From a virus, in IMG/VR virus record IMGVR_UViG_3300031918_000006, positions 51,599-115,598 of that record: a stretch of 64,000 bases of DNA. The stretch is one strand, 5' to 3'. Below the pieces are notes generated by a model. The model saw only the letters and a list, made by a program, of their open reading frames with translations. It was not told the origin of the DNA and ran no database searches. Positions within the stretch are counted from its first letter, which is position 1, and each line of letters starts with the position of its first letter. Below are positions 19,714-62,444 of this stretch, one piece after another. A program made the position numbers and the translations under genes.

Positions 19714-20854
19714 GTATACACTTGAATATAGGTAGATTAGGCACTCCTTTTGGTGAGAGATGGAAGAATTTAATAGTAGCCATTTTTCCTATATAATCTT
19801 TAATATTTTCAAGATATTCAACTCTTTTAGCCACATTACCTGTGGGTTTAGCTTCAAATGCTATTCCTTTATCAGTAACTAAAGTGAACACCATATCCTC
19901 AGGACGAAGTCCTTTAGAACAACCGGTAATTTTAAACTCTGCATCTTGCATGAGTTTTACCTTAATCATACGTTTATCACGCCCACCTATTTTATATGTA
20001 GCAGAAGCGTCTCTCCAAATACCTCCTTCATAACCTTCTGAAATCCATTGGTCGTGGAGTTTCATAATAGTATCTATATCTTCAGATTCAATCTTAATGT
20101 GTTCAACTATAACTACTTTATCAGTAGTAGGTTGGATTTCTTTAAGAATTTTAAGTCTCTGCTCAAAAGTTAAGTCATCTGCTACAATATCAAAAATCCA
20201 ATACTGTAAAGCATCATGTCTCTCCGGAATATATTCTCTTTTGCGGGCATGTCCAGAAATTTCATCTAAGAATTTCCCGTGACAATATATTTCACCATCT
20301 AGTTGATAATCTGGATACTTGTCAAAGAAAGTCTTAAAACAACCATCTTTAACTATTTCAGTACAAGCAGGATCATAGTCCTTACCTCCTCTGCTTACAG
20401 TACCCATAAGTTTTTTAACCATCCTTACTCCGTCAAGTTTACGTGAAAGATAACCTATCTTTCCATTAATTATACGTAGTATTCTAGTTATAATAATTTT
20501 TCTAGCCTCATCTTCAGAGACTAATGAATCTATTTTACCTCTAGAATCTAGAGCTAACATAGGTTTTTTATTTCCGTTTCTATCTGTTTTGTGTTCAATA
20601 AGGTCAGTAATCTCATCTTTATATCCTTTGTCATAGGCTTTATTTATAAGACTATTAAATTCTAATTCCATTTGAGTTTTAATACATCTACCTGCTTTTC
20701 CTATCTTTATTTCTAAAGTAGGTTGAGAGACATCTGTTCCTCCAACTAAACCAGAGGATCTTTTAATTTCATATCCAGGAAATTTATCAATAACTTGAAA
20801 AGACACATATCGTGTCTTTCCTTTGCTATCAACATTATACAATGTTTTATCCAT
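19697..20854 (-). CDS. ATP-dependent DNA ligase
   Basis: KPMLA, KLDGVR, LDGEIY, FD, EGGIWR, MIKVK and C-terminal OB-fold motifs. Confidence 0.92.
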   Translation of the reverse strand: MDKTLYNVDSKGKTRYVSFQVIDKFPGYEIKRSSGLVGGTDVSQPTLEIKIGKAGRCIKTQMELEFNSLINKAYDKGYKDEITDLIEHKTDRNGNKKPMLALDSRGKIDSLVSEDEARKIIITRILRIINGKIGYLSRKLDGVRMVKKLMGTVSRGGKDYDPACTEIVKDGCFKTFFDKYPDYQLDGEIYCHGKFLDEISGHARKREYIPERHDALQYWIFDIVADDLTFEQRLKILKEIQPTTDKVVIVEHIKIESEDIDTIMKLHDQWISEGYEGGIWRDASATYKIGGRDKRMIKVKLMQDAEFKITGCSKGLRPEDMVFTLVTDKGIAFEAKPTGNVAKRVEYLENIKDYIGKMATIKFFHLSPKGVPNLPIFKCIRETDE

Positions 20855-21173
20855 TTTTGTGATCTTCTATAAATTTGTCTAATAAAGATAATGCTTTCAT
20901 TCTATCAGAATAATATCCGGACATTATAGCAGTTTTTAATTCTTCATAAATATCTCTTAAAGTATTTATCGGCAAGGGTTTTATTACCATAGGAATTATT
21001 TCTTTATACATAATTCCAGTTTCATCACTTCTCTCTGAGGGTAAACAACATGTATTAGAACATTCCCCTTTATATTCAAAATAACATCCAGCACATCCTT
21101 CTAATGGGTCAGGCACAACCATAAGAGTAATACCTTTATAATCAAATGTATCCCCAATTTTATGCTCTTCCAT
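20847..21173 (-). CDS. Hypothetical Cys-rich protein
   Basis: CAGCYF...CSNTCC cluster; overlaps both neighbours. Confidence 0.6.
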   Translation of the reverse strand: MEEHKIGDTFDYKGITLMVVPDPLEGCAGCYFEYKGECSNTCCLPSERSDETGIMYKEIIPMVIKPLPINTLRDIYEELKTAIMSGYYSDRMKALSLLDKFIEDHKNG

Positions 21174-22032
21174 AAATTATAAGATTTCTTGGTATATTAT
21201 AAGGATTATTTCGTTTGAAATCAGAAGCATCATGTCGTTTTTTAATTTTCAAATATACTTCTTCTTTTACAGTTGTAGGAAATCTAACCATCTTTAAAAG
21301 ACATTGATCTACTTCAGCATAACTAGAAGCACCTAGTTGATCTAAATCACTATTTGTAATGCCTAGACCATCTGTAGGAGTAGCATCTATACAAGCTCCT
21401 AAAGCATAAGCTTCAGCTTGTTTATCTTCTAATTCCAATTGATTTACTAAATACTTAGATAAACCATATACTTCTGTTTTCCAGAGATTTTGAAACATTC
21501 CATAGTCACCAACGTCACCATGTAAAGTCCAGAAACCTAATAGATACTCAGTAAAGTTATCTGTGGAGAGAACCATGCCTTTATTATACTGAGCTAGATT
21601 GTAAAGATAAATCATTCTCATACGAGCTTTAATGTTACCCATACGTATCTTTTTCTCAAATTCTGATTCTTTTTTTAAAGGATCTATAATAAAAGTATCC
21701 ATAGTGTGAGATAATTGCTGAAAAGGAAATCCCAGATCCATCTCATGAAATTGAGTACAAAAATGTTTACCTATACCTAAGGCACGATTAATCTCATCTT
21801 TGTGATTACTCTGAATCGGAATACTTACTCCAATTAAAGGTATATTTAATTCATCACAAATAGGTTTAGCTAAAACTGCGCATAAAGCAGAATCAATACC
21901 TCCTGAAATTCCTAATACTAGAGATTTTAATCCACTATTAGATAAGTAATCCATCAATTCTTTTCTTATGTTATCACACATCAATTCATAATCAGTTTGA
22001 ATTTCTAATTGATACGTTGTATCTGTTATCAT
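21160..22032 (-). CDS. nadE: NH3-dependent NAD+ synthetase
   Basis: LGISGGIDS PP-loop, GNIKARMRM, GFWTLHGD, KTEVY, PTDGL; no glutaminase domain. Confidence 0.93.
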   Translation of the reverse strand: MITDTTYQLEIQTDYELMCDNIRKELMDYLSNSGLKSLVLGISGGIDSALCAVLAKPICDELNIPLIGVSIPIQSNHKDEINRALGIGKHFCTQFHEMDLGFPFQQLSHTMDTFIIDPLKKESEFEKKIRMGNIKARMRMIYLYNLAQYNKGMVLSTDNFTEYLLGFWTLHGDVGDYGMFQNLWKTEVYGLSKYLVNQLELEDKQAEAYALGACIDATPTDGLGITNSDLDQLGASSYAEVDQCLLKMVRFPTTVKEEVYLKIKKRHDASDFKRNNPYNIPRNLIIYGRA

Positions 22033-23180
22033 AATTTTAATTCTTTTTTACAGGTTATTATTTCTTCCGAATCACCAGTATTTTTTCCCAGATCATCTGA
22101 GATTTTAACTGTATGCTTATCACCAACTTTACTTAATTTAATTACTATATTTAAAGGTTTTATTCCAGTAATATCATTGGTTATATAAGTACCCACACCA
22201 TAAGTTTTATCCAAGGTGGCATTAGGTCTATAAGAGTCAATTGCATTAATTTTCTCTAAATTTAGAGAATCACTATACATCACTCCTTTAGCTTTTGCAA
22301 TTTTATTGTCAAGTAAATATTTCAAAACTAAATCAGTATAAATTAATGGATCACCACTATCTTGTCTAAAACCATCTAATTCTCTAGCATCTTTAGGATC
22401 TAAATTACTAAAGAAATGTGTAGAAGTATAAGTGTCTGTTAAGACTATATTTAACTTTTTATCATACACAGTTTTCCAAGTTTTCATAGCTTTTTCATTA
22501 GCTAAGATATATCCAAATTTAGCACCATGAAACATTATCCATTCATGAGCAGTAGTTCCTTTAATAGGAAGATTATGGATCATTCCAAAATACATATTAC
22601 TGGTTCCTCTTAAACCATTATTCATTTTTAGAATACTGATAGCTAAGGATTGTGCTAATTTAGAAAATCTTCTACGAGTCCCAAACTCAATAATATGATA
22701 GTCTTTTTCAGACATAATCCTTCCTTTTTCGGCAGTACGAGTTTTAAAATCACTTAAACTTGTATTAGGATTTTCAATTTCAAAATATACTTGTGAAATT
22801 ATAGCCATAAGTGGAACTTCCCAAAGGATAATATTTTTCCAATTTCCTTTAATTTTTATAGATAAATTAGAACCTGATCCTGTAATAATTACATCTTCCG
22901 GATTAAATCTATAATTTTTAATAAATTCAAAAAAATCTTCGTCAAATAGAGAACCTAAATCTTTTCTTAAAAAAAGTTCTTCTATTTGAGTTAAACTAAT
23001 ATTTGACATAAGTTTAACTTGTTCTCGAATTTCTGCACATACTTCTGGGGAAAATTCTCTTTTATCTCTATTATGGAATGTATACTCAACCTGTTCTGTA
23101 GGATAAGTTTTTAGTACAGCATTCAACATTGTGCATTTGTACAAATCATTGTCTAAAAGACTAGTTATTATTTGGTTCAT
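22029..23180 (-). CDS. pncB: Nicotinate phosphoribosyltransferase
   Basis: SLLDNDLYK, WEVPLMA, EFGTRRR, GTSN, GTTAHEW, LTDTY, RQDSGDP, SDSL, GVGT, KISDD. Confidence 0.93.
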   Translation of the reverse strand: MNQIITSLLDNDLYKCTMLNAVLKTYPTEQVEYTFHNRDKREFSPEVCAEIREQVKLMSNISLTQIEELFLRKDLGSLFDEDFFEFIKNYRFNPEDVIITGSGSNLSIKIKGNWKNIILWEVPLMAIISQVYFEIENPNTSLSDFKTRTAEKGRIMSEKDYHIIEFGTRRRFSKLAQSLAISILKMNNGLRGTSNMYFGMIHNLPIKGTTAHEWIMFHGAKFGYILANEKAMKTWKTVYDKKLNIVLTDTYTSTHFFSNLDPKDARELDGFRQDSGDPLIYTDLVLKYLLDNKIAKAKGVMYSDSLNLEKINAIDSYRPNATLDKTYGVGTYITNDITGIKPLNIVIKLSKVGDKHTVKISDDLGKNTGDSEEIITCKKELKL

Positions 23181-23641
23181 GATGGTCTCATTATGTATTT
23201 ATTAGTATTTTCAATCTCAGGCATTTCGAATCCCTGTTCTTTGGCTCTCATCTTTTTATATTCTATAAATCGATTATTATAAAGTTCAGCTAAATCAGTT
23301 TGTACTCTTCTAAGTACCTCTAACTCATGTTCGGACCAGTATTTAGCGGCAACTCCTGCTTTAAAAGCAGCGTCATCATTAAATGGAGTTCTAAAATGGC
23401 CATAAACTTTAATTAGTCTAAAATACCACCACACTCTTCTTTTATGTCTTTCTGGCCATCCACTCCTTCCTGTATGTTGTACTGTTATGTTACTAAAACT
23501 TACTCCAGAAAATATATTTCCTGAACTACTTGCAGTTAGAGTACCTGTTGAGGTAATATTCCCTGAACTACTTGCAGTTAGAGTATCTGTTGAGGTAATA
23601 CTACCACTCATTGCATTAACTACTATTGCGGGTTGTGTCAT
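23177..23641 (-). CDS. Hypothetical protein with Ser/Thr-rich duplicated segment
   Basis: Likely start at ATG 23641, downstream of a terminator; ITSTxTLTASSSGN occurs twice. Confidence 0.6.
   Translation of the reverse strand: MTQPAIVVNAMSGSITSTDTLTASSSGNITSTGTLTASSSGNIFSGVSFSNITVQHTGRSGWPERHKRRVWWYFRLIKVYGHFRTPFNDDAAFKAGVAAKYWSEHELEVLRRVQTDLAELYNNRFIEYKKMRAKEQGFEMPEIENTNKYIMRPS
23514..23600. repeat. 42-bp tandem duplication (2 copies)
   Basis: CTGAACTACTTGCAGTTAGAGTA(C/T)CTGTTGAGGTAATA starts at 23521 and 23563. Confidence 0.9.
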
Positions 23642-23651
23642 ATCTAAATTT

Positions 23652-23684
23652 AAAAAAATAGCGAATCGGTTTCCCAATTCGCTA
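23652..23684 (-). terminator. Intrinsic terminator
   Basis: Minus strand UAGCGAAUUGG-GAAA-CCGAUUCGCUA followed by U7. Confidence 0.8.
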
Positions 23685-23695
23685 AAAAACATTAA

Positions 23696-24162: not shown

Positions 24163-24627
24163 TTAAATTAACGGGATTGAATCCCCATATTTTTTATTAA
24201 GTGCTTTATTTATACCATCCAGAATTACTCTTGTTTCTGGGGTTACTCCGTCTACACTTGTAAGACGAAACATTTTTTTCCATTCATATTTAGAACCACT
24301 TACATAAAAATCTGTTCTTATCCCTAGTGGTAAAATTTTGAAGGCTATTTTAGGGGAAACCCCTGCTGCAATCAAACTGAAGTAATTAACTTCTGCTGCT
24401 GCACATCCATCATGATATATTAATTCTGCTAAAGAATTTTCTATCATAGTTTCAGGAGTGATGATAGAGATTTCATCTGCCCTAATATCATCTGAGATTG
24501 TTTTAACTTCTATATAAGAACTTATTTCTCTACAAACTAATGCATCACTAGTTATTGCAACTATTATGTTATCAGTCTCTCTAGATAATAAATCTATAAT
24601 TTCAAAATGTGGTGTTATATATTTCAC
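24163..24627 (-). CDS. Degenerate ThyX-like protein
   Basis: YFSLIAAGVSPKIAFKILPLGIRTDFYVSG...W..MFRL resembles the ThyX C-terminal half; the RHR...SxR signature is absent. Confidence 0.5.
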   Translation of the reverse strand: MKYITPHFEIIDLLSRETDNIIVAITSDALVCREISSYIEVKTISDDIRADEISIITPETMIENSLAELIYHDGCAAAEVNYFSLIAAGVSPKIAFKILPLGIRTDFYVSGSKYEWKKMFRLTSVDGVTPETRVILDGINKALNKKYGDSIPLI

Positions 24628-24884: not shown

Positions 24885-25323
24885 TAGCTTTTCTCCCATC
24901 GGTACCAGTATGGCCAAAGCCACCCTCGCCTCTTTCTGTTTCAGATAGTTCTACTGATTTTTCCCATTCTATTGACAAGACTTCAGCCCAAACAAGTTGA
25001 GCAATTCTATCTCCAGGATTAATTGTAAATGGATCTTTAGAGAGATTTACAAGAATTACTTTGATTTCTCCTCTGTAATCAGCATCTATGGTTCCTGGGC
25101 TATTTAAGACCGTTACACCATGTTTAAAAGCTATTCCAGACTTTGGTCTCACTTGTATCTCAGATCCCTTAGGAACCTCTACAAATAGACCTGTAGGAAT
25201 AGCAGCTCTCTCAAGCATACCTAAAATAATAGGTTCTGTAATATTGGCACTAACGTCCATTCCCGCTGCCCATCTAGTTTCATATCTAGGCAATGCATTA
25301 TCTGATTTGTTTATAATTTTCAT
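24877..25323 (-). CDS. dut: Trimeric dUTPase
   Basis: AGMD, RPKSG, GTIDADYRGE, RIAQL, RGEGGFGHTG motifs. Confidence 0.96.
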   Translation of the reverse strand: MKIINKSDNALPRYETRWAAGMDVSANITEPIILGMLERAAIPTGLFVEVPKGSEIQVRPKSGIAFKHGVTVLNSPGTIDADYRGEIKVILVNLSKDPFTINPGDRIAQLVWAEVLSIEWEKSVELSETERGEGGFGHTGTDGRKANG

Positions 25324-26342
25324 AACGGTTTTTGTATTAATTGTCTATATTGAATCCAACCTTTAAAATTTCCAGACCATAGATGACCTTTTGAGTCTGA
25401 ATGTGTAAATCCACTTCCTACTCCTAAATTATAATTACTAATTGTGGGAACTTGAGCACAATGTTCAAAAGGACTCATATGCTTATTTTCCAGTAAGTTA
25501 TCATGCAATTGAATATCTTTATGATAATCTATCTTTCCATCAAAATTATTGTAAGATGTTCTTGCACAACGTGCTGTAGCTACTTTAAGTTTTAATTCAT
25601 TTTCTAATGAACCATGCCAAATAGTAGTACCAGATGGTATATTTTCTCTAATAAAATCTTTTAAATTAATTCTATCACCAAATGGCATATGCCATTCTCC
25701 AAGTTTTAAGGACTTAGGAGTGCTTTCTATCATTGCATCATACATTGCTTCAGCTAAAGCTTGTATATGTATTTCTGCTCCAGAATGACTTAAGTTCCAC
25801 CATTCCCATTCATTTAATTCATAAGGAAGTGTATGTACTTTTTCTAATTCTTTTCTTGATTTATAAAAAACATCAGGTTCAGTATTTACTGCATATTTTG
25901 GACATCTTAATTCAAAGAATCCGCTAAATTCAGTAGCTGTTACCAGTACTTTATGCCATAAAAATGGCTCTAAAAGACGGTTACAAAGTTGTTTTGTTAT
26001 ATTACTTTCACTAAACTGTATTGCTGCTTTCAATGCTGATTCTTTTGCATTTATCCAACCCCAATAAGGACTATTTGGATTTTCTTTTCCTGGTAAATAT
26101 TCTGTACCTTGCATTCCAGAATGATCTTTTTGCCACGCAATTGGAATAAAAGGATCTTCTATTACAGATGCCACCATTTTATAAAATGGAATAGCTCTAG
26201 AAGAAGCACTATTTCTACTAAAAACTCTATGAGTCATTAGTTCCGAATGTATAAATCTCGGATATGTTAAAACATAAGTAGTGATCCTATCTCCCTTTGG
26301 GGACATAGAATCACATATTATTTCTGCATTTATTTTGTTCAT
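25320..26342 (-). CDS. thyX: FAD-dependent thymidylate synthase (ThyX-like)
   Basis: THRVFSRNSASSR signature, KQLCNRLLEPF, FFELR, ARCARTSY, HMSPFEH. Confidence 0.85.
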   Translation of the reverse strand: MNKINAEIICDSMSPKGDRITTYVLTYPRFIHSELMTHRVFSRNSASSRAIPFYKMVASVIEDPFIPIAWQKDHSGMQGTEYLPGKENPNSPYWGWINAKESALKAAIQFSESNITKQLCNRLLEPFLWHKVLVTATEFSGFFELRCPKYAVNTEPDVFYKSRKELEKVHTLPYELNEWEWWNLSHSGAEIHIQALAEAMYDAMIESTPKSLKLGEWHMPFGDRINLKDFIRENIPSGTTIWHGSLENELKLKVATARCARTSYNNFDGKIDYHKDIQLHDNLLENKHMSPFEHCAQVPTISNYNLGVGSGFTHSDSKGHLWSGNFKGWIQYRQLIQKPL

Positions 26343-28756
26343 TAACCACATTTGTTATAACCACAATCCACATCAGAACATTTTACACATCCTTCAATAC
26401 GAATCATTTTTTTACCACATTCAGGACATTTTTCCTCTAAAATAGCCTCTATTGCATATTTTGCAAGAGTTCTTGTAATAGCTTTACAGAAAGCAGTCAC
26501 AGAAGTTGGAACTTGTCCAAGTTGATCTATGATAAAGTTTAAATCAATTCCTTGTCTTAAACCTAAAACAGAGATCATTCTTGTTAAAGCCTGCTCTTCA
26601 TCACTTCCAAAATAATTTGCAATATTTTTTATAGTGACTGATTCAGTCTCTAAGTTATAATTTTTACCTACTTTTACTAAATTACCCTTTTTTACAGCTT
26701 TACCTAAAGAAATTTCCATTTCTTTAAAAGCAAAGATTTCATATGGTTTATCTTTAAATAATCCTACAATTACTAACCAATCATCTCCAGAGGCTTTCAA
26801 GTGATGTATATCACAAGGAAGTGTTTTAGGACGTTTAGTTGTTATTGTTTGAGGATCACTTTTTTCAACCTTTTTTAACACTGCAGACATAGTACCTGCT
26901 CGATAAGTAGTTAAACCTTTAATCGTCCCAGTTTTCCAAGCCTTAATATAAAGACTCTTAAAGTCTTCATAAGGATAGTCATTTGGTAAATTAATAGTCT
27001 TACTTAAAGCTGCGTCTACATAACTTGAAACTATGGTCATGATACTTAAATGAGCATCTACATTTAACTGTTCAGTAGTTTTGGCCCACTCAGCTTTTGG
27101 ATCCCACTCACCAATACTTTTAAGATAATGTACAGCATAATCTTCAACTAAGGATTCTTTTACGTATCCTCCAGTTTGAGACCATTTATAAGTTATTCCG
27201 TCTAAAATAGTAGATTTAAATTGTGTATCACCTTCCATTTTAGTACCAAGCCATTTATCATGAGTACCTAAATCTCTTGGTAACACGTCTACACCATGAG
27301 TTCTTATATATTCTGTCATAAAGACAGGTTCAAATCCCCCAGATATATTATTAGCTAAAATACCAGTATTTCCTGTTGGTTGTACTGAAGTTAAATGGCT
27401 ATTTCTTAAGCCATAAAGCTTAATAAGATCCATAGTTTCAGAAGTTAGAGCTTGAGTCCAAAAATCAGATTCTAAGAAATTCTCATAATTCCATAAAGGA
27501 AATGGTCCTTTTTCTTTAGCCAATAAAGCAGAGGCTTGATAAATTTGATTAGTTACAAATTCAAAGTACTTCTTAACTAAGAGTTTACTTTCTTCAGATC
27601 CATACTCAACTTTTAATATCATTAAAGCAGAACCTAAACCAGTTACACCGATTCCAATTCTTCTCTTATTCTGAATTTCTGTATATTGTTCTGGAAGTGG
27701 CATAAATGTCACATCTATTACATTATCTAACAATCGGACAATTGAAGGGATATGTACTTCTAAGGCATCATAGTTCCAATCTTTCCTATCATCACTGATA
27801 AATTGAGTAGCATTAATACTACCTAATAAACAAGCTCCTCCAATTGGAAGTGGCTGTTCTCCACAAGGATTAGTAGCATTTATAGTTTCGATAACTTTTA
27901 GATTATTCATACCATTTACGGTATCAATAAACAAACAACCTGGTTCTGCTCTATTATAAGTAGAGGTCATTATTAAATTATACAATTCTCTAGCTGGTAT
28001 AGTCTTATAAACTATAATTTTTCCACCTAGTTTTTGCCATCCTTCAATATCACCATCCCAAGATTTTTTATAAAGAGGTTTATCTGCCTCAATATCAGGA
28101 AATATTAATTGCCAATCTTCATCGGCAAGTACAGCTTCCATAAACTTATCTGTTAATAGCACTGACATATTGAATTTAGTCAATCTACCTTCAGTTTGTT
28201 TCGCTGTTATAAATTCTAGAATATCAGGATGCCACACATAAGCTGTAACCATTTGAGCTCCTTTTCTATTCTTTTTCTTACCTTCTGTATTTTCTAATCC
28301 ACTTCCTGAAGTTATAACTCTAGATTGTGTATCCCACATATCTAATTGAGCTACACTACCTGGAGTAGAACTTCCAATTCCTTTAATCATAGCTCCTCTT
28401 GGTCTCATTACTGAGCAACAGAATCCATAACCTCCCTCGGATTTTAAAATAAGAGCCTGTCTCCTAAGTTCGGCCATGATGCCTTCCATAGAATCTTGGT
28501 CTTCTCCTCTAAATCCAGAGACAAAACAATTAATATAACTTGTTGATTGATAATCGGTACCAGCATTAGAAAGTATTCTACCTCCTGGGACGAATTTAAA
28601 ATTTTCTAAGGCTGAGTAAAAATCTTTTTTATACTTACCTGAATCGGCCTCAGCCTCGGATAACTTTTCAGCTACCCGAAGCCACATGCCTTCAATTGAT
28701 TCTTCTTTATACTGGTAAGTAGTCTTAAATATTTCTTCTGACAGCTTATTCAACAT
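26342..28756 (-). CDS. nrdJ: Class II (B12-dependent) ribonucleotide reductase
   Basis: PGGRIL, NCFV, TNPCGEQPL, CLLGSIN, RRIGIG, QPTG, SKTINLP, C-terminal CPEC...C zinc ribbon; no nrdB nearby. Confidence 0.9.
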   Translation of the reverse strand: MLNKLSEEIFKTTYQYKEESIEGMWLRVAEKLSEAEADSGKYKKDFYSALENFKFVPGGRILSNAGTDYQSTSYINCFVSGFRGEDQDSMEGIMAELRRQALILKSEGGYGFCCSVMRPRGAMIKGIGSSTPGSVAQLDMWDTQSRVITSGSGLENTEGKKKNRKGAQMVTAYVWHPDILEFITAKQTEGRLTKFNMSVLLTDKFMEAVLADEDWQLIFPDIEADKPLYKKSWDGDIEGWQKLGGKIIVYKTIPARELYNLIMTSTYNRAEPGCLFIDTVNGMNNLKVIETINATNPCGEQPLPIGGACLLGSINATQFISDDRKDWNYDALEVHIPSIVRLLDNVIDVTFMPLPEQYTEIQNKRRIGIGVTGLGSALMILKVEYGSEESKLLVKKYFEFVTNQIYQASALLAKEKGPFPLWNYENFLESDFWTQALTSETMDLIKLYGLRNSHLTSVQPTGNTGILANNISGGFEPVFMTEYIRTHGVDVLPRDLGTHDKWLGTKMEGDTQFKSTILDGITYKWSQTGGYVKESLVEDYAVHYLKSIGEWDPKAEWAKTTEQLNVDAHLSIMTIVSSYVDAALSKTINLPNDYPYEDFKSLYIKAWKTGTIKGLTTYRAGTMSAVLKKVEKSDPQTITTKRPKTLPCDIHHLKASGDDWLVIVGLFKDKPYEIFAFKEMEISLGKAVKKGNLVKVGKNYNLETESVTIKNIANYFGSDEEQALTRMISVLGLRQGIDLNFIIDQLGQVPTSVTAFCKAITRTLAKYAIEAILEEKCPECGKKMIRIEGCVKCSDVDCGYNKCG

Positions 28757-36770: not shown

Positions 36771-37028
36771 TTATCTTATTTTTTCTATTAAGTCCATAGG
36801 CACTTCTTTAACAGGAGCTTTTCTCATAGTTTCTATTATATCTAAAGTAGATATTGTATACTTTTGTAAATCACATACAGAATAATCCATATTATTATAA
36901 CTTCTATAATTTATTCTAAATAAACAAAGTACTCCTCCTCTTTCTACTAAAATATATTCTATTCTCCCATCAGTACCTTTTGAGGAATTAATTATTTGCT
37001 CGGGTCTACAATTACCATATAAAAACAT
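36771..37028 (-). CDS. Hypothetical protein
   Basis: 85-aa coupled ORF. Confidence 0.55.
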   Translation of the reverse strand: MFLYGNCRPEQIINSSKGTDGRIEYILVERGGVLCLFRINYRSYNNMDYSVCDLQKYTISTLDIIETMRKAPVKEVPMDLIEKIR

Positions 37029-37837
37029 TAAAATCCATCTAAATTAAATAGTCTTCTTGCTCCTACGTCAAATTGCTTATTAGCAGGGGTATCCATTAAA
37101 TAACCAGTAATTCCAATACTTTCAGCCTCAATCATATTGTCTAGTTTATCATCAATTAAGATGTTTGCACCAGATTTCTTTAAAGATTCTTTCTTTGATT
37201 CTCCCCATGGAACCACATAAATAGGTCTACAAGGTAAATTATTTTTCTCTAAAGATTCTTTAATCCATTCGATTGGAATGGAACGAGCTGTGATATAACA
37301 ATGAGGAACAAATTTAGGAAAATGCTTTACCGGCAAGTTAACCCAAAAATCTTTATCACTCTCTAATTCTTTAAGTTGTGCTGATGTAGCATAACTAAAA
37401 TCCCACCACATTATGCTCTCTTTGATGCCATATCTTTCTGCAAATGCAGGACTCCAATCAAAAATGCAATCATCTAAATCAAGGGCAACCTTTTTATTGT
37501 ATTTTTCCCATGCTTTAGGCCTATTATCCAACTCAGGATGAGTTTTATAATATTCTTTGATGAATGCGGCATTTGTAAGTACATGATCTATATGTAATAA
37601 ACCACTTTCTTTGTCAAAATCTTCTCCTCCTCTGAATGCTTCAAAATGTCTAAATAGACTTGCTGCAACAGATTCCCAGGATAATCCTTTTTCCCAATTT
37701 CTTACTCCTCCTTCTGCACTATATTTAGCATCACCATAAGTTAAAACTTCTGCTAATCCTTTTAAAGCGGAGGTCGGTATTAAATCATACCGTAATTTGT
37801 TTTTATTAAAGCGTAATGCTTTAGGTTTTTCTTCCAT
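37028..37837 (-). CDS. dATP/dGTP diphosphohydrolase-like (DUF5664) domain fused to a HAD 5'-nucleotidase-like domain
   Basis: N-terminal KLRYDLIP...VLTYG.AKY...NWEKG...RH...D.ESGLLHIDH; C-terminal ALDLDD, ITAR, K, LIDD. Confidence 0.8.
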   Translation of the reverse strand: MEEKPKALRFNKNKLRYDLIPTSALKGLAEVLTYGDAKYSAEGGVRNWEKGLSWESVAASLFRHFEAFRGGEDFDKESGLLHIDHVLTNAAFIKEYYKTHPELDNRPKAWEKYNKKVALDLDDCIFDWSPAFAERYGIKESIMWWDFSYATSAQLKELESDKDFWVNLPVKHFPKFVPHCYITARSIPIEWIKESLEKNNLPCRPIYVVPWGESKKESLKKSGANILIDDKLDNMIEAESIGITGYLMDTPANKQFDVGARRLFNLDGF

Positions 37838-45204: not shown

Positions 45205-46417
45205 ATCTAAACAGATATTTATTCTCTTTGTGTTCTTTTTGTTCAATATCTCCATTGGTCAAAACAATTGCGAGTTGTTCTTCATCAATGGTAATAATAC
45301 TTGCATCTTCTTTAGAGGCTTTTCTGAACCATTCTTCTTCTACAGTTCCTCGTAATACCAAATGAAAAATCTCGGAGGTTTTCTCTCCCTCGAGCCGTAT
45401 AGCTCTGCCTTTTCTCTGATAATTACTAGTCCATGAGGAAGTTCCTCCTAACACTATTGCTAAATTAACTCCTTTGATGTCTGCTCCTAATTCTATAGTT
45501 CTTATGCTATTTAGGACTCCCGATTCTACATCATTAAAAGCTTCTTCAATTAACTTTCTCTTTTTAGGAGTTAATTTGGAATGAATTGTTGATCCAATTC
45601 CAATACTTTCTGCCATTTCTATACTTTGTGAAAAAGTTATAGCTTTAGCATTTGGTCTAAAAGTTAGAATTTGTTTAGCTATTATAGCTTTAAATGCATG
45701 ATTATAAATAAATTTCTTTCTACCTTGTAAAGCTCTATTAAAGCCAAAAGTATGAATATCAACGTCTTTATAATCTAGATTATTTACTTTTGCGTATCTT
45801 CTACGGTTTATAACATTGCCTAACATAGACATAGCTAGGTCAAAATCATAATTAAAATAAGAGAAGTGAGCTATAAACTCAGTATTCATTTTCTGGTATT
45901 CTGTGAGATCCACATCTAAAAGAACTTTATACTCTCTGAATGGAGCTAGCCATTTATTAAGTATGCATTCTTTTAAAGTAACTTCCGCACAGACTGGTGC
46001 ATATTTTTTAATCAAAGTTTCCTTCCCATCCAATCTCTCGATTGTAGCAGTAAGTCCCATGATTATTTTATAATCCGTTTTTCTAAATACTTTACTAAAA
46101 GTATCTCCAGCCATAGAATGAATTTCATCAATTATTAGAAAATCAACTATGTGATCTCCTACAATAACTGAGTTTATAACCCAAACTTCAATATTGTTTA
46201 ATTCCCAGGCTTTTAGCAATTCCATCCATTGATTTTTAAGATATAATGTAGGTACTACTACCATTACTATACCCTCAGGATTATTTTTAAGGAACCATTT
46301 AATTGCACGCAATCCAATTCTAGTTTTACCAAAACCAGTTGCCCCAATTACAGTTCCTCTACATCCTCCTTTAACCCATGACATTAGAACGTCTGTTTGT
46401 CTTTCGTCTCTAGTCAT
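45200..46417 (-). CDS. SF2 DExH helicase (UvsW/ResIII-like)
   Basis: ATGFGKT, VPT, IIDEIH, GLTAT, GADI, QRKGRAIR. Confidence 0.9.
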   Translation of the reverse strand: MTRDERQTDVLMSWVKGGCRGTVIGATGFGKTRIGLRAIKWFLKNNPEGIVMVVVPTLYLKNQWMELLKAWELNNIEVWVINSVIVGDHIVDFLIIDEIHSMAGDTFSKVFRKTDYKIIMGLTATIERLDGKETLIKKYAPVCAEVTLKECILNKWLAPFREYKVLLDVDLTEYQKMNTEFIAHFSYFNYDFDLAMSMLGNVINRRRYAKVNNLDYKDVDIHTFGFNRALQGRKKFIYNHAFKAIIAKQILTFRPNAKAITFSQSIEMAESIGIGSTIHSKLTPKKRKLIEEAFNDVESGVLNSIRTIELGADIKGVNLAIVLGGTSSWTSNYQRKGRAIRLEGEKTSEIFHLVLRGTVEEEWFRKASKEDASIITIDEEQLAIVLTNGDIEQKEHKENKYLFRF

Positions 46418-54083: not shown

Positions 54084-54109
54084 AAAAAAGGAGGTATTAC
54101 CCTCCTTTT
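54084..54109 (-). terminator. Intrinsic terminator after ferritin gene
   Basis: AAAAGGAGG-TATTAC-CCTCCTTTT hairpin; U-run on the minus strand. Confidence 0.85.
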
Positions 54110-54635: not shown

Positions 54636-54685
54636 ATTATAAATTTTTGTAAAGTTACTCACAAAAATAATAATATCAAAGAGAT

Positions 54686-55440: not shown

Positions 55441-57108
55441 TTATTTTTTATTTGTCAAGTAAACGCTAGTAGGATTAACAATAATAATACCAGCATTACA
55501 ACAATGAATTACACTATTTTCTGACACTTCACTACACTGAAATTCATCCAATATAGACATGTCCAAACTTCTCATTAAGACAAGTTTATCATCTTGGGGG
55601 ACAACAATAATATCGTTGTTTAAAGTGTCATAGTATCTCAAACCTAAGAAATTACAATCAAAAAATTCAACTTGTAAGTTTTTAATAGAGAATACTTTAT
55701 ATATAATCTTGTCACTTTCAAGATATTCTACAATACCTGTTTGACCTGATTGTACTAAATTCTTTATTCTTTTCTGTAAGACTACTGAATTTAATGTGCC
55801 TTTCTCGTAAAATATTACAGATGAATCTGCTACTCTTTGAAAAAGACCATCAATATTGGTAAATCCCCCACCATATACATTATGTGATTGCATAGCAACT
55901 TGATGATTAAATATACTATTTAAAGTAAAATGAAATCTCATGTTATCTGTAACAATTATTAAAGTATCTCCAAATTGTCTTGATTTAAGCTTACCTAAAT
56001 GAGAAAATTCTTTAACCATATAATGTGTTTTATAATCACCATCTGCATAATAAAGAACTAAGTCTCTTAACAGTAAGAAATTATCATTAGAGGAAAAGAA
56101 TATAAGATCCTTAGATTCTGCTCTAAAAGAATGCATCACTCTGTAATTACCCTTTATAGAACAATCATAAATAATAGTAACTCCATTGTTTGTTATGGCT
56201 AATCTAGTTTTACTACTCGCACTTTTTGTTATTAAACCTCTAGTTATCTCTTTCATAATCAATTGATCAGTTTTAACGATGATCTGTGGGTTTACTAGTA
56301 TGTTGTGTTGTTGTGTTGTTAGTATATTAAGTTGAATAATGAATCTATTCCCCTTAACAAACAGCTCCATGAACTGATCAAAGAGTGCAATGTTAGTAAT
56401 GGGTTGATAACATTTTGGAATAATAACATCCTTATCATTCATTACAGTGAGTTTTTTAATCATTCTCTCTGCAATACTTAGCACCTTTTTGTTCACTCCT
56501 TTAAAAGGGTGGATATAAGTGAGTAAATTAAAAATAATTAATCCTATAGAAAAATAGTCAGCTTTAATACTAACAGTTCCACTATAAAGATAATCTCTAA
56601 TTTCATCAAATAATAAACCAGAGTGTTTACAGTTTGGTGTTTCATATGAGTCCACATCTATTAAATAAACAGAGCCAGATTCATTTACAAGTATATTATA
56701 AGGATTATAATCTCCAATGATTATGTTCTTACTATGTGCAAATTTCATTGCATCTATGAGCTTCTCAGCTATGTTTAACTTGACTTTGTCAGAGATATTT
56801 TCTCTGATACAAAAAGTTTTATTAAAAAGTGAGAGAATTGGATAGTGATCAGATGGTACTTTATTCATGGTAAATCCTAAGATTTTACCCTTAGAGTCAT
56901 AAACAAGTTTTTCTGGCTTAACAAAGATGTTGCTCTTTAATTCAGCCAAATCATTGAACTTAATTTCAGTAATGGTCTTTATACCAGGTAGGTATAGCTT
57001 CACTACTTCAATTCCATTATCAATAATCATACCTTCTCCACCTCTTGCAATCTCTTTTGAAGTATCGAGATCTACAATTAAAACTTTTTGTTTATTATAG
57101 AGTTTCAT
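55441..57108 (-). CDS. Ser/Thr protein kinase (YegI/TerY-associated type) with beta-rich C-terminal domain
   Basis: ARGGEG, VVKLY, IGDYNPYNILV, LIDVDS, ADYFS, HPFKG. Confidence 0.85.
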   Translation of the reverse strand: MKLYNKQKVLIVDLDTSKEIARGGEGMIIDNGIEVVKLYLPGIKTITEIKFNDLAELKSNIFVKPEKLVYDSKGKILGFTMNKVPSDHYPILSLFNKTFCIRENISDKVKLNIAEKLIDAMKFAHSKNIIIGDYNPYNILVNESGSVYLIDVDSYETPNCKHSGLLFDEIRDYLYSGTVSIKADYFSIGLIIFNLLTYIHPFKGVNKKVLSIAERMIKKLTVMNDKDVIIPKCYQPITNIALFDQFMELFVKGNRFIIQLNILTTQQHNILVNPQIIVKTDQLIMKEITRGLITKSASSKTRLAITNNGVTIIYDCSIKGNYRVMHSFRAESKDLIFFSSNDNFLLLRDLVLYYADGDYKTHYMVKEFSHLGKLKSRQFGDTLIIVTDNMRFHFTLNSIFNHQVAMQSHNVYGGGFTNIDGLFQRVADSSVIFYEKGTLNSVVLQKRIKNLVQSGQTGIVEYLESDKIIYKVFSIKNLQVEFFDCNFLGLRYYDTLNNDIIVVPQDDKLVLMRSLDMSILDEFQCSEVSENSVIHCCNAGIIIVNPTSVYLTNKK

Positions 57109-57376
57109 TGAGATAAACTATTTTATCAAGAGCATCTTCTCTATTTTTCTTATTAAGAAAAATATATTGCTGATTATCATTATTCCAACCATCCCAGATT
57201 TTATCTGAGTCTTTGTAGATAATAATAGTAGGTAAATCCGGAGTACTTTTAATAAGTTCATCAATGACATTTTCAATATCATTAGTTAAAGATCTTCCTG
57301 CATCTAGATCTTCTAAACACAGTATACGATGTCCTTTATGTACTACTATTTCTGAGGTGTATTTACATTTTACCAT
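57095..57376 (-). CDS. Hypothetical protein
   Basis: SLTNDIENVI...IIYKDSD..WDG. Confidence 0.6.
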   Translation of the reverse strand: MVKCKYTSEIVVHKGHRILCLEDLDAGRSLTNDIENVIDELIKSTPDLPTIIIYKDSDKIWDGWNNDNQQYIFLNKKNREDALDKIVYLNETL

Positions 57377-57386
57377 TTTCTTTTTA

Positions 57387-57713
57387 TTAAATTTTTTTTG
57401 GTTCTCCCATCAACACATCAAGTTCAGGGGGATTAGACGGAGTGTCTTTTATTTCATCCTTAAATATGAAATCTATAGCCTCTTCTAAACTATATTTAGA
57501 AGGAATTTCCCAATTCCAACGTCTATTTACCATATGATAAAAGTTCCAAGAACTATAATATTTAGTAAATATACATTTAGGAGGTTCAATGTTACTTCTT
57601 TTACAATCTTTGTTTATTTGAATAAGAAACTGTGTTTCAATTTCTTCTTCTTCTGTAACAGCTATATATTCACCATCTTTAAATATTAGATAATATTCAT
57701 AGTCAGTTTTCAT
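57387..57713 (-). CDS. Hypothetical protein
   Basis: 108-aa coupled ORF. Confidence 0.55.
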   Translation of the reverse strand: MKTDYEYYLIFKDGEYIAVTEEEEIETQFLIQINKDCKRSNIEPPKCIFTKYYSSWNFYHMVNRRWNWEIPSKYSLEEAIDFIFKDEIKDTPSNPPELDVLMGEPKKI

Positions 57714-58420
57714 AATATAAATCTTACTATAGACAAATCATCATAGTTAGAATATCCTTCTTTTAAAAGCATATTATATTTTCTAGCTAACATAGCTTCA
57801 CTTTTTATTAGAGTTTCCTCATAAAGTAAAGATTCTATTACTCTTGAACTAACATCTTTCTTTTCTTTGTCCGTGAAGGAATAAATTCCATCTGAACAAA
57901 TTGAAAAAGTCTTTTGCATTTCAAAAGTATACTCTTTAGTAGATAAAAGAGCTTCCTCAATACTATTTAAATGGTAAGCTAAATAATCAGGAGCATTACC
58001 AGGACTTTCAATTTTAGTTTCTTCAGCGCTTTTTCCATCACTTATATAGAAACATCCATCTCCTGAGACTAATACAAAGACTCGCCCATCTCGTATAACT
58101 GTTAAAATCACTGTAGAAAGCAATTCTAAAGGATCTAGATATAAAGAGGTTTTTACTTCATTTAAGGAATGATATAAACTTTTAAAAATGCTTCTACCAA
58201 TTCCTTCTAAAGACCACTCCTTATATATAGGAAAAAGATTATTACAGTAAGCATTTAAAATTTTATTGTATAGTGTTGAGACAAAATGACTTTTAATTCC
58301 AGTACTACATCCATCAAAGACGGCTCCAATATAAGTGTTGCCATCATTAAAAGTGAACAGATCATCTTCGCAATTTACGTGATGATCTGCTCCTCTTTTA
58401 AGTAAGGTTCTAACTTCCAT
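57710..58420 (-). CDS. PP2C-family protein phosphatase (PphC/YegK-like)
   Basis: NCEDD, VFDGCST, SGDG, CSDG, DDLSIV. Confidence 0.88.
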   Translation of the reverse strand: MEVRTLLKRGADHHVNCEDDLFTFNDGNTYIGAVFDGCSTGIKSHFVSTLYNKILNAYCNNLFPIYKEWSLEGIGRSIFKSLYHSLNEVKTSLYLDPLELLSTVILTVIRDGRVFVLVSGDGCFYISDGKSAEETKIESPGNAPDYLAYHLNSIEEALLSTKEYTFEMQKTFSICSDGIYSFTDKEKKDVSSRVIESLLYEETLIKSEAMLARKYNMLLKEGYSNYDDLSIVRFIL

Positions 58421-59103
58421 TAGAAGCTGGTAGTAATGGGATTAGCACCAGATGAAGATTTAGAAATTGAAGAGCTGATAAAGCTAATCATTTTCTTAAT
58501 TTCTGCACCGGTATTTCCAACTACAGCAAGATGTTGAAATCCCATATCCTGTTGTGCTCTTTTGAATGAACTATCACTTCCTACTCCGAAGAGGATAGTA
58601 GTGAATGAAAAAGCATTGGCCTCTTTAGATGTAATATCTTCTAAGGTTTTTTTGATTACAGTTGGACGACATCTGCTGGAATTATCTTCACCATCGGTGA
58701 TACAGAATATCAATGTTTTCACATTAATACCAGATTGCTCAAGTGTATCACGATAATCTACAGCATTTTTAATACCATAAGCAACACCGTCATACAAAGC
58801 TGTACCGCCACCTTGTGGTACAAAGTTAATAACAGGTACTCCGGCAATTGGTTGAAATCCACTTCTTACTTTAACTTGGTGGTCAAACTCAATGATTGAG
58901 ACTAAAAGTCTATCACTGATATGAGATTGCTGCATTGTTTGAATAAAATCATTGAAAGCAGCATTAAAATCTTTTGCATAACTAGCAACTGATGGTGATA
59001 TATCAATTACAAATACAGCATTGACTGTTTCTTCTACCTGAATTAAATCAGTATCTACGTTATGGAAATCCAAGTGGATATCCAGATCATCTAAATCTTC
59101 CAT
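58420..59103 (-). CDS. von Willebrand A domain protein (TerY/YegL-like)
   Basis: MIDAS DISPS, GGTALYD, ITDGED. Confidence 0.88.
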   Translation of the reverse strand: MEDLDDLDIHLDFHNVDTDLIQVEETVNAVFVIDISPSVASYAKDFNAAFNDFIQTMQQSHISDRLLVSIIEFDHQVKVRSGFQPIAGVPVINFVPQGGGTALYDGVAYGIKNAVDYRDTLEQSGINVKTLIFCITDGEDNSSRCRPTVIKKTLEDITSKEANAFSFTTILFGVGSDSSFKRAQQDMGFQHLAVVGNTGAEIKKMISFISSSISKSSSGANPITTSF

Positions 59104-59114
59104 TTCTTTTAAAA

Positions 59115-59954
59115 TTAAAGGGTTACATCAACTGATTTAATAAATTCAATGCCCATTGCTTTTGCACTTGCATAGGTAGCATCTCCTAGGAATCCTAGGC
59201 CAGGTACATCAGACATACAGTCCTCAAGAATAACAAATTTCTTTGCTAAAGTTGGAAATTGCATAGCTTGTCGTAATGTGTTTGCAACACAATGACTCTT
59301 AGCTTCTCCTGCAAAATATACTTTTTCAAATTTTTCCAATTTGTGTATAAGGTTTGCATTTAGCTGAGTTTCAGGATGTCCTTCAACTGGCACGTTAGCA
59401 CGAAAAGCACCAAAATGTTCAGTAAGAGGCCATGTGCCTTTGGTTACTACTTGGTGAAACTCACCTTTAGCACGACACCAAGACTCAACAGACAAGATAA
59501 CTTCTGGCATAATGGCAGCACCGGGACTTCCAATGATACAATGTTCTGGCCAAATATAATGAGGAAATTCTCCTTGTTTTTCCAATTCTGCTACATAAGC
59601 TGTGGCTTCTTTTGGATAATACTTTGGAGTCCACTTGCCTGCTAAGATATCAGCAGAAGTGATTTGTGTGAAAGGGCCTGGTAAATTACCGTCCTTATCT
59701 TGCCAGAATCCCGGATGTGATATGTCTATCACTTGATGAGAGTCCATGGTTAAACCGATGTAATCAATCTCAGCTAAATTTTTAGCTATAAAATTTCCTA
59801 CACGAGCCATATCGTTTTCAGCTCCAGGAACATACAAAGATCCTACCGGTCTTACTTGAATAGTTATTCCATCTTTATCCAGTATACTTTCACCTGGATC
59901 ACAAAAATCGACTTGTGCGTCGATAATCAGCAAAGCATTCTTTGTTCTTTTCAT
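59115..59954 (-). CDS. pncA: Nicotinamidase (isochorismatase family)
   Basis: IIDAQVDF, GSLYVPGA, DSH, WPEHC, VTKG, GEAKSHCV (D-K-C triad). Confidence 0.88.
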   Translation of the reverse strand: MKRTKNALLIIDAQVDFCDPGESILDKDGITIQVRPVGSLYVPGAENDMARVGNFIAKNLAEIDYIGLTMDSHQVIDISHPGFWQDKDGNLPGPFTQITSADILAGKWTPKYYPKEATAYVAELEKQGEFPHYIWPEHCIIGSPGAAIMPEVILSVESWCRAKGEFHQVVTKGTWPLTEHFGAFRANVPVEGHPETQLNANLIHKLEKFEKVYFAGEAKSHCVANTLRQAMQFPTLAKKFVILEDCMSDVPGLGFLGDATYASAKAMGIEFIKSVDVTL

Positions 59955-60812: not shown

Positions 60813-60817
60813 GTGTG

Positions 60818-60889
60818 TGGCGATAGTAGGATTTGAACCTACGACCAGAGGCCTATGATGCCCCTGCTCTACCACTGAGCTATATCGCT
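60818..60889 (-). tRNA. tRNA-Met/Ile2 (CAT)
   Basis: GCGATA/TATCGC acceptor, GCTC-AGTGGTA-GAGC D arm, GGGGC-ATCATAG-GCCTC, GTAGG-TTCAAAT-CCTAC. Confidence 0.85.
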
Positions 60890-61100: not shown

Positions 61101-61114
61101 AATAATTAAATTTG

Positions 61115-61186
61115 TGCAGGATGTCGGGTTCGAACCGCGTTTTCTGATTGGAAGTCAGACACTTTACCAATTAAGCTACACCCTGC
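61115..61186 (-). tRNA. tRNA-Gly (TCC), atypical acceptor/T stem
   Basis: GCAGGGTG/CATCCTGC acceptor, TCTGA-CTTCCAA-TCAGA anticodon arm, CGG-TTCGAAC-CCG T arm. Confidence 0.8.
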
Positions 61187-61809: not shown

Positions 61810-61925
61810 AAAAAATTTTAAATTAAAATACAAGATACTAATTTTTTTAGTATTTATGCATTTAATTTAAAATTTTTTATAAATTTTTAGTCTCTTAAAG
61901 CACTTGAGTACTCTTCCAATTCCTT

Positions 61926-62444
61926 TTAATGCCCCAATATTCTAGCTATTGCTAGTCTAACTAAAGGAGCTTGACCAAAAGCCAGATTCTTTTCTTTTAT
62001 AGAAATTACATCTGCTTTACACCACTCAACATCTGATGTTTCATCTGTGATGGTAACTTTTGGTAATTCTTTTTTCTCAAACAAATATGCACTGCCAATT
62101 GAAACGTTCTGGCGATTACCAGTTGGGTCTGAGTGTACGTATACATTTGGATATACTGTCATTTCACCATCTCCTTTTGTGAAAGGTTCTTGTGCATTTA
62201 CATCAAATCCAGTTTCTTCCCTAATTTCTCTTGCAGTAGCTTCTTCCAAGGTTTCATCCCAATCAAGATAACCACATGGTAAACACCACCTTCCGGGCAT
62301 GTCTTCCATACTCTCAGCTCTCTTTGTCAATAGCACATATAATTCTTTTTTAAAGATTACAAAAACTATGCCAGTTACAGCTACACTTCTAGAATGCCAG
62401 ATGATTCCATCTTCTGTTTTGTATGCTTTATTAGGTCTGCTCAT
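61926..62444 (-). CDS. Nudix hydrolase (ADP-ribose pyrophosphatase-like)
   Basis: LPCGYLDWDETLEEATAREIREETG Nudix box; SDP..NRQNVS; LAF. Confidence 0.9.
   Translation of the reverse strand: MSRPNKAYKTEDGIIWHSRSVAVTGIVFVIFKKELYVLLTKRAESMEDMPGRWCLPCGYLDWDETLEEATAREIREETGFDVNAQEPFTKGDGEMTVYPNVYVHSDPTGNRQNVSIGSAYLFEKKELPKVTITDETSDVEWCKADVISIKEKNLAFGQAPLVRLAIARILGH

Follow-up and report, generated by a model that had tools for sequence, protein, structure and literature searches.

Can a phage rebuild nicotinamide adenine dinucleotide (NAD+) by the deamidating route, and what purpose would this serve? The question is raised by a 64,000-nt window of viral DNA, the second half of the 115,598-bp IMG/VR record IMGVR_UViG_3300031918_000006, which encodes a nicotinamidase (PncA), a nicotinate phosphoribosyltransferase (PncB), an NAD+ synthetase (NadE) and a Nudix hydrolase. 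Coordinates are given as positions in this window. The reading favoured here, with a probability of roughly 0.6, is that a crAss-like phage carries genes of NAD+ salvage pathway I captured from Bacteroidota and would rebuild NAD+ with the help of the host NadD. It was drawn from comparisons of sequence, predicted fold and gene neighbourhood.

The record is linear and about 65% complete (CheckV), with 31.7% G+C. Two Crassvirus proteins were identified with Pfam, the major capsid protein (PF23898, 1.6e-15) and the muzzle protein (PF25731, 2.6e-26), and a run of giant proteins follows them. Because of these capsid and muzzle matches, the record was assigned to a crAss-like phage. The host is most likely a member of Bacteroidota. 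The full genome was estimated at about 180 kb, from 115.6 kb at 65% completeness.

Salvage genes and the missing adenylyltransferase

Four genes of the window bear on the question, and all lie on the minus strand:

22029..23180, minus strand: pncB, nicotinate phosphoribosyltransferase, 383 aa (PF04095 and PF17767)
21160..22032, minus strand: nadE, single-domain (ammonia-type) NAD+ synthetase, 290 aa (PF02540 at 2.7e-37)
59115..59954, minus strand: pncA, long-type nicotinamidase, 279 aa, first gene of a cassette (family alignment and fold)
61926..62444, minus strand: stand-alone Nudix hydrolase, 172 aa, probably an ADP-ribose pyrophosphatase (PF00293 at 4.8e-18)

The initial annotation had described a coupled pncB-nadE pair together with pncA and a Nudix gene, and all four open reading frames (ORFs) were recovered intact. 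PncB scored 328.5 bits against TIGR01514. The cut-off of 269.55 was passed, so the phage enzyme was classified as the nicotinate type and not as Nampt. Its best PDB sequence match was 2im5 at 1e-69, and H212, in the motif GTTAHE, was invariant in the PncB alignment. NadE scored 124.8 bits against TIGR00552 (cut-off 63.65) and had a P-loop, SGGIDS, at residues 43-48. No CN_hydrolase (glutaminase) domain was found in NadE with Pfam; single-domain NadE is described as using free ammonia (PMC3376133). The pncB stop was overlapped by nadE by 4 bp (ATGA), and the pair lay inside an unbroken string of overlapping ORFs reaching into the ligase gene.

PncA was weak in Pfam (PF00857, 23.1 bits, cut-off 27). 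The long PncA belongs to a large family (1714 matches, length about 262 aa), the members of which (Cytophagales, Bacteroidales and related metagenome-assembled genomes, MAGs) are named nicotinamidase by their sources. In 35 aligned sequences, D12, D71, H73, W135-P136-x-H138-C139, K172 and C222 were invariant. We take D12, K172 and C222 to be the nicotinamidase triad, and D71, H73 and H138 the metal site. The AlphaFold (AF2) model was confident, with a pLDDT (predicted local distance difference test) of 96. Compared with the PDB by Foldseek, its 15 best listed rows (ranks 1-17) were all nicotinamidases or pyrazinamidases, including those of A. baumannii, yeast (Pnc1), Leishmania, Drosophila, P. 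horikoshii, M. tuberculosis, S. pneumoniae and B. subtilis. No relative of PncA above 61% identity was found in IMG/VR.

A 17-residue insertion near the PncA N-terminus (residues ~21-37) was modelled as a beta-hairpin. It was common to just two of the 34 other aligned sequences, P0011 and P0032 (462-kb contig).

The step between PncB and NadE was sought on the whole 115.6-kb contig (about 65% of the genome). PF01467 (NadD/NadM/NadR) gave 0 candidates; the same search succeeded in 14/14 control genomes. The NadD of G047, a related crAss-like genome described below, found nothing on the contig when used as query (best E-value 3.1). The contig also contained no gene resembling a phosphoribosyl pyrophosphate (PRPP) synthetase (PF13793), no PnuC gene (PF04973) and no second PF04095 gene (Nampt), the sole PF04095 gene being of the PncB type. 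The remark in the initial annotation that neither NadD/NadM nor PRPP synthetase was visible, with its suggestion to search further along the genome, was therefore borne out for the entire contig. Nicotinamidase, PncB and NAD+ synthetase of salvage pathway I (Preiss-Handler) were present, and nicotinate mononucleotide (NaMN) adenylyltransferase was not found there.

Two ORFs flanking pncB-nadE were considered as a hidden NadD and rejected. The 108-aa ORF at 20847-21173 and the 171-aa ORF at 23177-23692 had no Pfam match and no similarity to G047 NadD.

The reactions were assigned by family membership. PncA would convert nicotinamide to nicotinate and NH3, and PncB would form NaMN from nicotinate, PRPP and ATP. 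Because no phage adenylyltransferase was found on the contig, host NadD must supply the adenylylation of NaMN to nicotinate adenine dinucleotide (NaAD). The single-domain NadE would then make NAD+ from NaAD and free ammonia, and PncA would release ammonia as its second product. The Nudix enzyme would split ADP-ribose into AMP and ribose-5-phosphate, and the latter would be returned to PRPP by host Prs. The order proposed earlier, nicotinamide to nicotinate to NaMN to NaAD to NAD+, fits the gene identities and the sequence of reactions, but the route is incomplete on the contig.

In bacteria, these enzymes may be encoded in a salvage I operon with NrtR, e.g., nrtR-pncA-pncB-nadD-nadE (Rodionov et al. 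2008, PMC2330246). NrtR is an ADP-ribose-responsive repressor of NAD genes and is released from DNA by ADP-ribose (PMC2330246). The phage genes resemble these operons in their enzymes, and their closest relatives are found in Bacteroidota operons of the type NrtR-(PncB)-PncA-vWA-PP2C-kinase-(NadE). In contrast, the phage has no NrtR, and its Nudix protein has no DNA-binding winged-helix domain, so phage expression is probably freed from ADP-ribose control. Without NrtR, the phage copies would escape host repression, and an infected cell would regenerate NAD+ from both of its cleavage products at a higher rate than the NrtR-repressed salvage genes of the host would allow.

Relatives and origin of the genes

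The initial annotation had suggested co-occurrence of pncA, pncB and nadE in phages as a check, and grouping above chance was found in both GenBank and IMG/VR phage records. In GenBank phage records, there were 20 matches to PncB, 43 to NadE and 4 to long PncA. NadE was matched in 11 of the 20 PncB-matching records, compared with only 43 of 50,697 phage records overall. LR756500 (462 kb) contained all three genes, with 59% (PncA), 55% (NadE) and 40% (PncB) identity to the phage proteins. In MT835470 (117 kb), pncB and nadE were adjacent, and a PF01467 ORF lay 1.4 kb further on.

PncB relatives were found on 175 viral stretches in IMG/VR. The best 80 of these 175 loci were used for co-occurrence, and 78 records were searched (L019 and L020 left out). 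NadE accompanied PncB in 66/78 records, a PF01467 ORF in 47/78 (44 above cut-off), an isochorismatase-family ORF (PF00857) in 54/78, plus the record of the studied phage itself, and a homologue of the phage Nudix in 37/78. Among the 12 PncB records at least 90% complete, the respective numbers were 10 (NadE), 9 (PF01467), 9 (isochorismatase family) and 8 (Nudix). By coordinates, the co-occurring NAD genes were mostly neighbours.

The complete pncA-pncB-nadE-nadD-Nudix block was present in dozens of crAss-like genomes. G047 is a complete 186-kb crAss-like genome with terminal repeats and has its NAD genes in one block. The order by Pfam was metallophosphoesterase, pncA (224 aa), pncB, nadE, nadD (186 aa), a 180-aa ORF and Nudix (191 aa), followed by two small ORFs, an HAD-family gene and YqeY. 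Between G047 and the studied phage, 46 of the 104 ORFs of the latter were common, largely in the same order and including the capsid module. By this gene content, G047 is placed in the same broad crAss-like group.

Within the G047 block, the 180-aa ORF between nadD and Nudix (4198-4740, minus strand) had no Pfam match, and HAD_SAK_2 and YqeY genes (1988-3096, minus strand) closed the block. These three could also belong to the NAD module.

Closer relatives were few. G001 (46.8 kb, PncB 78% identical) was the sole close relative in IMG/VR, and its record ends at the ribonucleotide reductase (RNR) gene. A metagenome scan for close relatives yielded three short contigs and L135, a 106-kb record with PncB 65% identical. 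In G001 and L135, unknown ORFs were followed by pncB-nadE-ligase-helicase. No nadD was found near nadE in either record. In L135, nadE is immediately next to the ligase gene, with no counterpart of the 108-aa ORF that follows nadE in the window.

The phage PncA was 55-60% identical to Cytophagales and Bacteroidales proteins. PncB was about 45% identical to Bacteroidales PncB (Butyricimonas, Odoribacteraceae, Dysgonomonas), and NadE shared 55-60% identity with the single-domain NAD(+) synthases encoded in Bacteroidota MAGs. Against G047, identity was 36% for PncB and 39% for NadE. Since PncB and NadE were closer to Bacteroidota than to the other crAss-like lineage, repeated capture, and therefore selection, is hinted at. 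Beyond a weak match (26%) to the short form, nothing comparable to the long-type PncA was found in G047. In a quick PncB tree, the clade of the studied phage (11 rows, full support) stood apart from the G047 clade and next to Bacteroidales. The joining branch had just 55% support, so the direction of PncB transfer is unsettled. The G+C content was 0.389 for pncA, 0.278 for pncB and 0.307 for nadE. Most simply, the genes would have been taken up or replaced from Bacteroidota more than once, in different crAss-like lineages, a point on which the PncB tree is not decisive.

Possible purpose of the route

The initial annotation had called this set a third NAD-reconstitution strategy, and that claim did not stand. 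The name NARP3 belongs to PnuC + NadR, which imports nicotinamide riboside (Sci Adv 2026, PMC13464706), and phage Preiss-Handler clusters have been published, as has a proposed function against NAD+ depletion (PMC11662467, PMC11780533). NARP1 consists of Adps + Namat, and NARP2 of Nampt + Nmnat/Nudix (Osterman et al., bioRxiv 10.1101/2024.02.11.579819). The present set resembles them in outcome, in that NAD+ is rebuilt during infection from nicotinamide (NARP2) or from nicotinamide and ADP-ribose (NARP1). However, NARP1 and NARP2 are amidated routes with other enzymes, and the contig has no Nampt, PF01467 or PRPS-like gene. NARP3 has no deamidation step, and PnuC and NadR were not found on the contig. 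Because Adps/Namat, Nampt, PF01467, PnuC and NadR were all absent from the contig, the set is none of NARP1, NARP2 and NARP3. In the text available, the NARP1/NARP2 preprint makes no mention of PncA, PncB, NadE, nicotinamidase or nicotinic acid, and the NARP3 paper does not mention PncA, PncB or NadE. The literature search gave no relevant paper on a 'NARP4'.

The nearest described phages are the NAD-jumbo phages of the gut. Complete salvage or Preiss-Handler pathways were reported in 174/668 gut jumbo phages (Microbiome 2024, PMC11662467). The clusters include pncB-nadD-nadE, e.g., in Kuafu_71, the hosts are mostly Bacteroidota, and a role against NAD+ depletion was suggested, pending experiments (PMC11662467). 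Phage-borne pncB and nadE of the deamidated route are common to these phages and the studied one, as probably are Bacteroidota hosts. NAD-jumbo phages are larger than 200 kb and encode every step of one NAD+ pathway, including nadD, whereas the studied phage is crAss-like, with 115.6 kb at about 65% completeness (about 180 kb in full), and has no nadD on the contig. Moreover, its genes lie at three places, with pncA inside a vWA/PP2C/kinase cassette.

For crAss-like phages and NAD, the only paper found was a survey of human gut virus operational taxonomic units (Theranostics 2025, PMC11780533). K08281/K00763 (pncAB), K00969 (nadD) and K01916 (nadE) were reported there in several gene contexts, and the viral set enriched in healthy subjects was rich in crAss-like viruses (PMC11780533). 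It is a survey by KEGG number and, in the parts available, holds no analysis of the Nudix gene, of a missing nadD or of a kinase/phosphatase cassette. The gene set is thus already described from sequence in phages. Particular to this locus are the crAss-like, non-jumbo carrier, the lack of nadD and the nicotinamidase in a TerY-P-like cassette. The phage NAD+ reconstitution pathways shown by experiment, three in the literature examined, are all amidated; the deamidating route is widespread in phage metagenomes. The studied phage indicates that this route occurs outside jumbo phages and, as far as the contig extends, is retained without a nadD of its own.

Resistance to NAD+-depleting abortive-infection systems may be the purpose of the genes, at slightly below even odds as judged from their predicted reactions. 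What makes counter-defence plausible is that the route starts from nicotinamide and ADP-ribose, precisely the compounds released by NADases. A general supply of NAD+ for replication is possible but clearly less probable. The genes would then be ordinary auxiliary metabolic genes, giving NAD+ to a large, replication-heavy phage or in hosts with weak salvage, with no special relation to NADase defence. The gene neighbourhood is consistent with this. Replication and nucleotide-metabolism genes occupy the minus strand from about 17 kb of the window onward (PIF1/RecD-type helicase, ATP-dependent DNA ligase, dUTPase, ThyX, ribonucleotide reductase, primase, DnaB-type helicase and family A DNA polymerase), and the NAD genes sit among the ligase, helicase, dUTPase, ThyX and RNR genes. 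NAD+ for phage NAD-consuming enzymes is also the main interpretation given for the jumbo phages (PMC11662467), and infection by the jumbo phage PA5oct up-regulates the host pncA-pncB1-nadE operon, which suggests a general demand for NAD+ (PMC7318152). However, the phage ligase is ATP-dependent (PF01068), and none of the ORFs scanned was recognised as encoding an NAD-consuming enzyme. The match between the inputs of the route and the NADase products likewise argues against a supply function alone.

Nudix hydrolase and nicotinamidase cassette

The Nudix protein has a perfect Nudix box (GX5EX7REUXEEXGU) at residues 58-80, and its AF2 model had a pLDDT of 92.9. The top fold match was the Nudix domain of Shewanella NrtR with ADP-ribose, 3gz8 (E 3e-11, template modelling (TM) scores 0.69/0.76). 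Two structures of the F. tularensis NMN adenylyltransferase/ADP-ribose pyrophosphatase (NadM-Nudix; NMN, nicotinamide mononucleotide), 2qjt and 2r5w, were among the top seven folds. In the NAD block of related phages, Nudix homologues stood directly behind nadD. Over the Nudix domain, the protein was 25-31% identical to Bacteroidota NrtR proteins heading salvage operons. It ends where the NrtR_WHD of these proteins starts and, having no winged-helix, does not belong to the NrtR regulators. From its fold neighbours and gene neighbourhood, it is probably an ADP-ribose pyrophosphatase. Both lines of evidence agree with the earlier inclusion of the Nudix gene in the NAD set.

It is rather unlikely that the Nudix protein is unrelated to ADP-ribose and instead serves to clear away damaged or non-canonical nucleotides or to decap RNA at the 5' end (NAD caps included). 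Its best PDB sequence matches were indeed NudI nucleoside triphosphatases (3oga at 5.6e-07), and Dcp2, NudC and Ap4A hydrolases were among its fold matches. Fourteen fused or longer Nudix relatives were scanned, and one was fused to a Ham1 (ITPase) domain and another to an AAA_33 domain. The ADP-ribose complex and NadM-Nudix at the head of the fold matches, the place of the homologues behind nadD and the identity to NrtR all point away from such a function.

Two tRNA genes, tRNA-Met (CAT) at 60817-60889 and tRNA-Gly (TCC) at 61114-61186, both on the minus strand, lie between pncA and the Nudix gene. Just downstream of the Nudix gene is a 130-aa HNH/endonuclease VII-like ORF (61441-61833, minus strand), which scored below the Pfam cut-offs.

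Five ORFs follow pncA without gaps:

58420..59103, minus strand: TerY-like von Willebrand factor A (vWA) protein, 227 aa, with a complete metal ion-dependent adhesion site (MIDAS; alignment, weak integrin I-domain PDB matches)
57710..58420, minus strand: PP2C-type protein phosphatase, 236 aa (PF13672 at 1.3e-08)
57095..57713, minus strand: two small ORFs, 108 aa and 93 aa, between phosphatase and kinase (no Pfam or PADLOC match)
55441..57108, minus strand: Ser/Thr protein kinase, 555 aa (PF00069 at 1.2e-08, residues 103-223)

The MIDAS of the vWA protein (D34-x-S36-x-S38...T101...D137) was invariant in 34 sequences. The C-terminal part of the kinase, about 300 aa, had no Pfam domain past residue 223 and no Atlas family. 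In the 26 IMG/VR loci encoding long PncA, vWA adjoined long PncA in 25/26, and the complete cassette with PP2C and kinase was present in 24/26. The two small ORFs had no homologue in any of these loci and so are probably not core parts. The identification of pncA as a nicotinamidase gene of the pathway held, but pncA is not an orphan: it is part of a conserved four-gene cassette.

The cassette was also found in bacteria. In the best 80 of 546 Bacteroidota loci, the gene adjacent to long PncA was vWA in 24/80, pncB in 15/80, PP2C in 14/80 and kinase in 12/80. The pncB-adjacent loci include Butyricimonas and Odoribacter isolates. Four bacterial loci (L167, L161, L142 and L144) were scanned with Pfam. 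L167 and L161 had the order NrtR-PncA-vWA-PP2C-kinase and were chromosomal, with ATP synthase, AcrB and aminotransferase genes on their flanks. The order was NrtR-PncB-NADAR-PncA-vWA-PP2C-kinase-NadE in L142 (with a glutamine-type NadE) and NrtR-PncB-PncA-vWA-PP2C-kinase-Nudix in L144. These NrtR-headed NAD operons indicate that the cassette is part of bacterial NAD salvage. In phages, it occurs both with pncB and without. The NADAR protein of L142 (PF08719, 1.4e-53) is encoded at 2303-3247 (plus strand), between pncB and pncA, in this NrtR-headed Bacteroidales operon.

Because pncA is the first gene of a PncA-vWA-PP2C-kinase operon, the activity or assembly of PncA is probably controlled by phosphorylation. 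The gene order thus suggests a phosphorylation-controlled nicotinamidase. The TerY-P triad of vWA, PP2C and Ser/Thr kinase (Anantharaman et al. 2012, as cited in PMC11090510) has been described as a mobile switch acting by phosphorylation, and one form of it as a stand-alone antiphage system (PMC11090510). The phage cassette has the same three domain types in one operon, and its vWA has a perfect MIDAS; in these features it fits the triad. The triads on record occur with genes for tellurite resistance, restriction or CoCoNuT (PMC11090510), whereas the phage partner is a nicotinamidase. The described kinase ends in a zinc ribbon or OB fold (PMC11090510); the C-terminal part of the phage kinase is unassigned. 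A link between nicotinamidase and kinase/phosphatase/vWA was not found in a limited literature search, for bacteria or for phages. Such a link offers a handle on possible post-translational regulation of NAD+ salvage.

A further interpretation is speculative and unlikely in its full form. The cassette would be a phosphorylation-gated nicotinamidase acting as a sensor-controlled entry valve of NAD+ recycling, kept under NrtR in Bacteroidota. Phages would have captured it repeatedly without the repressor, and nicotinamide released by NADases would be pulled into resynthesis once NAD+ breakdown starts. The pncB-nadE pair and the Nudix gene would be the downstream arm, and the cassette alone would be enough where the host has PncB, NadD and NadE.

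Several points weigh against the favoured reading of a captured salvage route completed by host NadD. The four genes lie at three separate places and not in one operon. Since no PF01467 enzyme was found on the contig, the phage set alone cannot make NAD+ without host NadD. The substrate of the Nudix protein is unreadable from its fold, and by sequence NudI and MutT-like proteins score like NadM-Nudix; none of the 14 fused or longer Nudix relatives contained an adenylyltransferase domain. PncB lay within 10 kb of the cassette in 0/26 viral loci, and NadE in 2/26. PF04095 occurred anywhere in the record in 7/26 cassette records (3/5 among those at least 90% complete). Given the many phages that carry the long-PncA cassette without PncB, the cassette may serve its own purpose. 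In the parts of the literature examined, there was no enzyme assay, NAD+ measurement or defence test for phage PncA, PncB or NadE.

In an alternative, the cassette works by itself as a signalling or conflict module (a TerY-P-type triad whose effector is an amidase), is carried by phages for some purpose other than supplying PncB-NadE, and is found alongside pncB-nadE only incidentally. This was judged improbable. It agrees with the completeness of the cassette in viral loci where PncB is mostly missing, and with the mobility of TerY-P triads and the stand-alone antiphage systems among TerY-P-like modules (PMC11090510). The higher G+C content of pncA than of pncB and nadE also suggests separate acquisition. 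However, the Bacteroidota cassette stands behind NrtR, and in L142 and L144 it lies between pncB and the nadE or Nudix gene. The catalytic and metal-binding residues of the nicotinamidase are invariant. PADLOC had no defence model for PncA, vWA, PP2C, PncB or NadE and gave generic matches only for the kinase; the Nudix protein matched PDC-S07.

A last alternative, that NadE is a Francisella-type NMN synthetase (NaMN to NMN) and the route needs an NMN adenylyltransferase instead of NadD, is very improbable: the second-best PDB match of NadE was F. tularensis 3fiu at 1e-17, the F. tularensis enzyme is an NMN synthetase with NadM replacing NadD (PMC3376133), and no NadD was found on the contig, but the nearest relatives of the phage NadE are the Bacteroidota NAD(+) synthases with 55-60% identity, related phages pair such a NadE with a NadD-sized PF01467 ORF, an adenylyltransferase would still be missing, and an archaeal single-domain enzyme had no NMN synthetase activity (PMC3376133).

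A gene for a ferritin-like protein (PF00210, 3.8e-13) lies at 54108-54662 on the minus strand, immediately downstream of the kinase cassette.

Other features of the window

The family A DNA polymerase gene was split into two ORFs, 47276-48670 and 46417-46635, both on the minus strand. A group I intron was detected in the split region at 47042-47295 (Rfam, 72 bits), and the G047 polymerase has a similar gap. Two ThyX-like ORFs were found on the minus strand. The first (343 aa, 25320-26351) matched only Thy1 positions 13-58, and the second (154 aa, 24163-24627) matched Thy1 positions 96-187. A dUTPase gene and a 99-aa ORF lie between them. In L135, a single 309-aa ORF holds the part matching the 154-aa ORF.

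In a 269-aa ORF (37028-37837, minus strand), Pfam recognised the N-terminal domain of dATP/dGTP diphosphohydrolases (PF18909, 1.4e-26). Phages with modified purines are known to encode this domain; in the studied phage, no gene resembling PurZ was noticed. A repeat protein of more than 516 aa (62448-63998, minus strand) runs off the window. It had no Pfam family above threshold and consisted of several repeats of about 100 aa, with the recurring motifs GDYIV...NYCFK...W(R)(Y/F)A...EI.EY.

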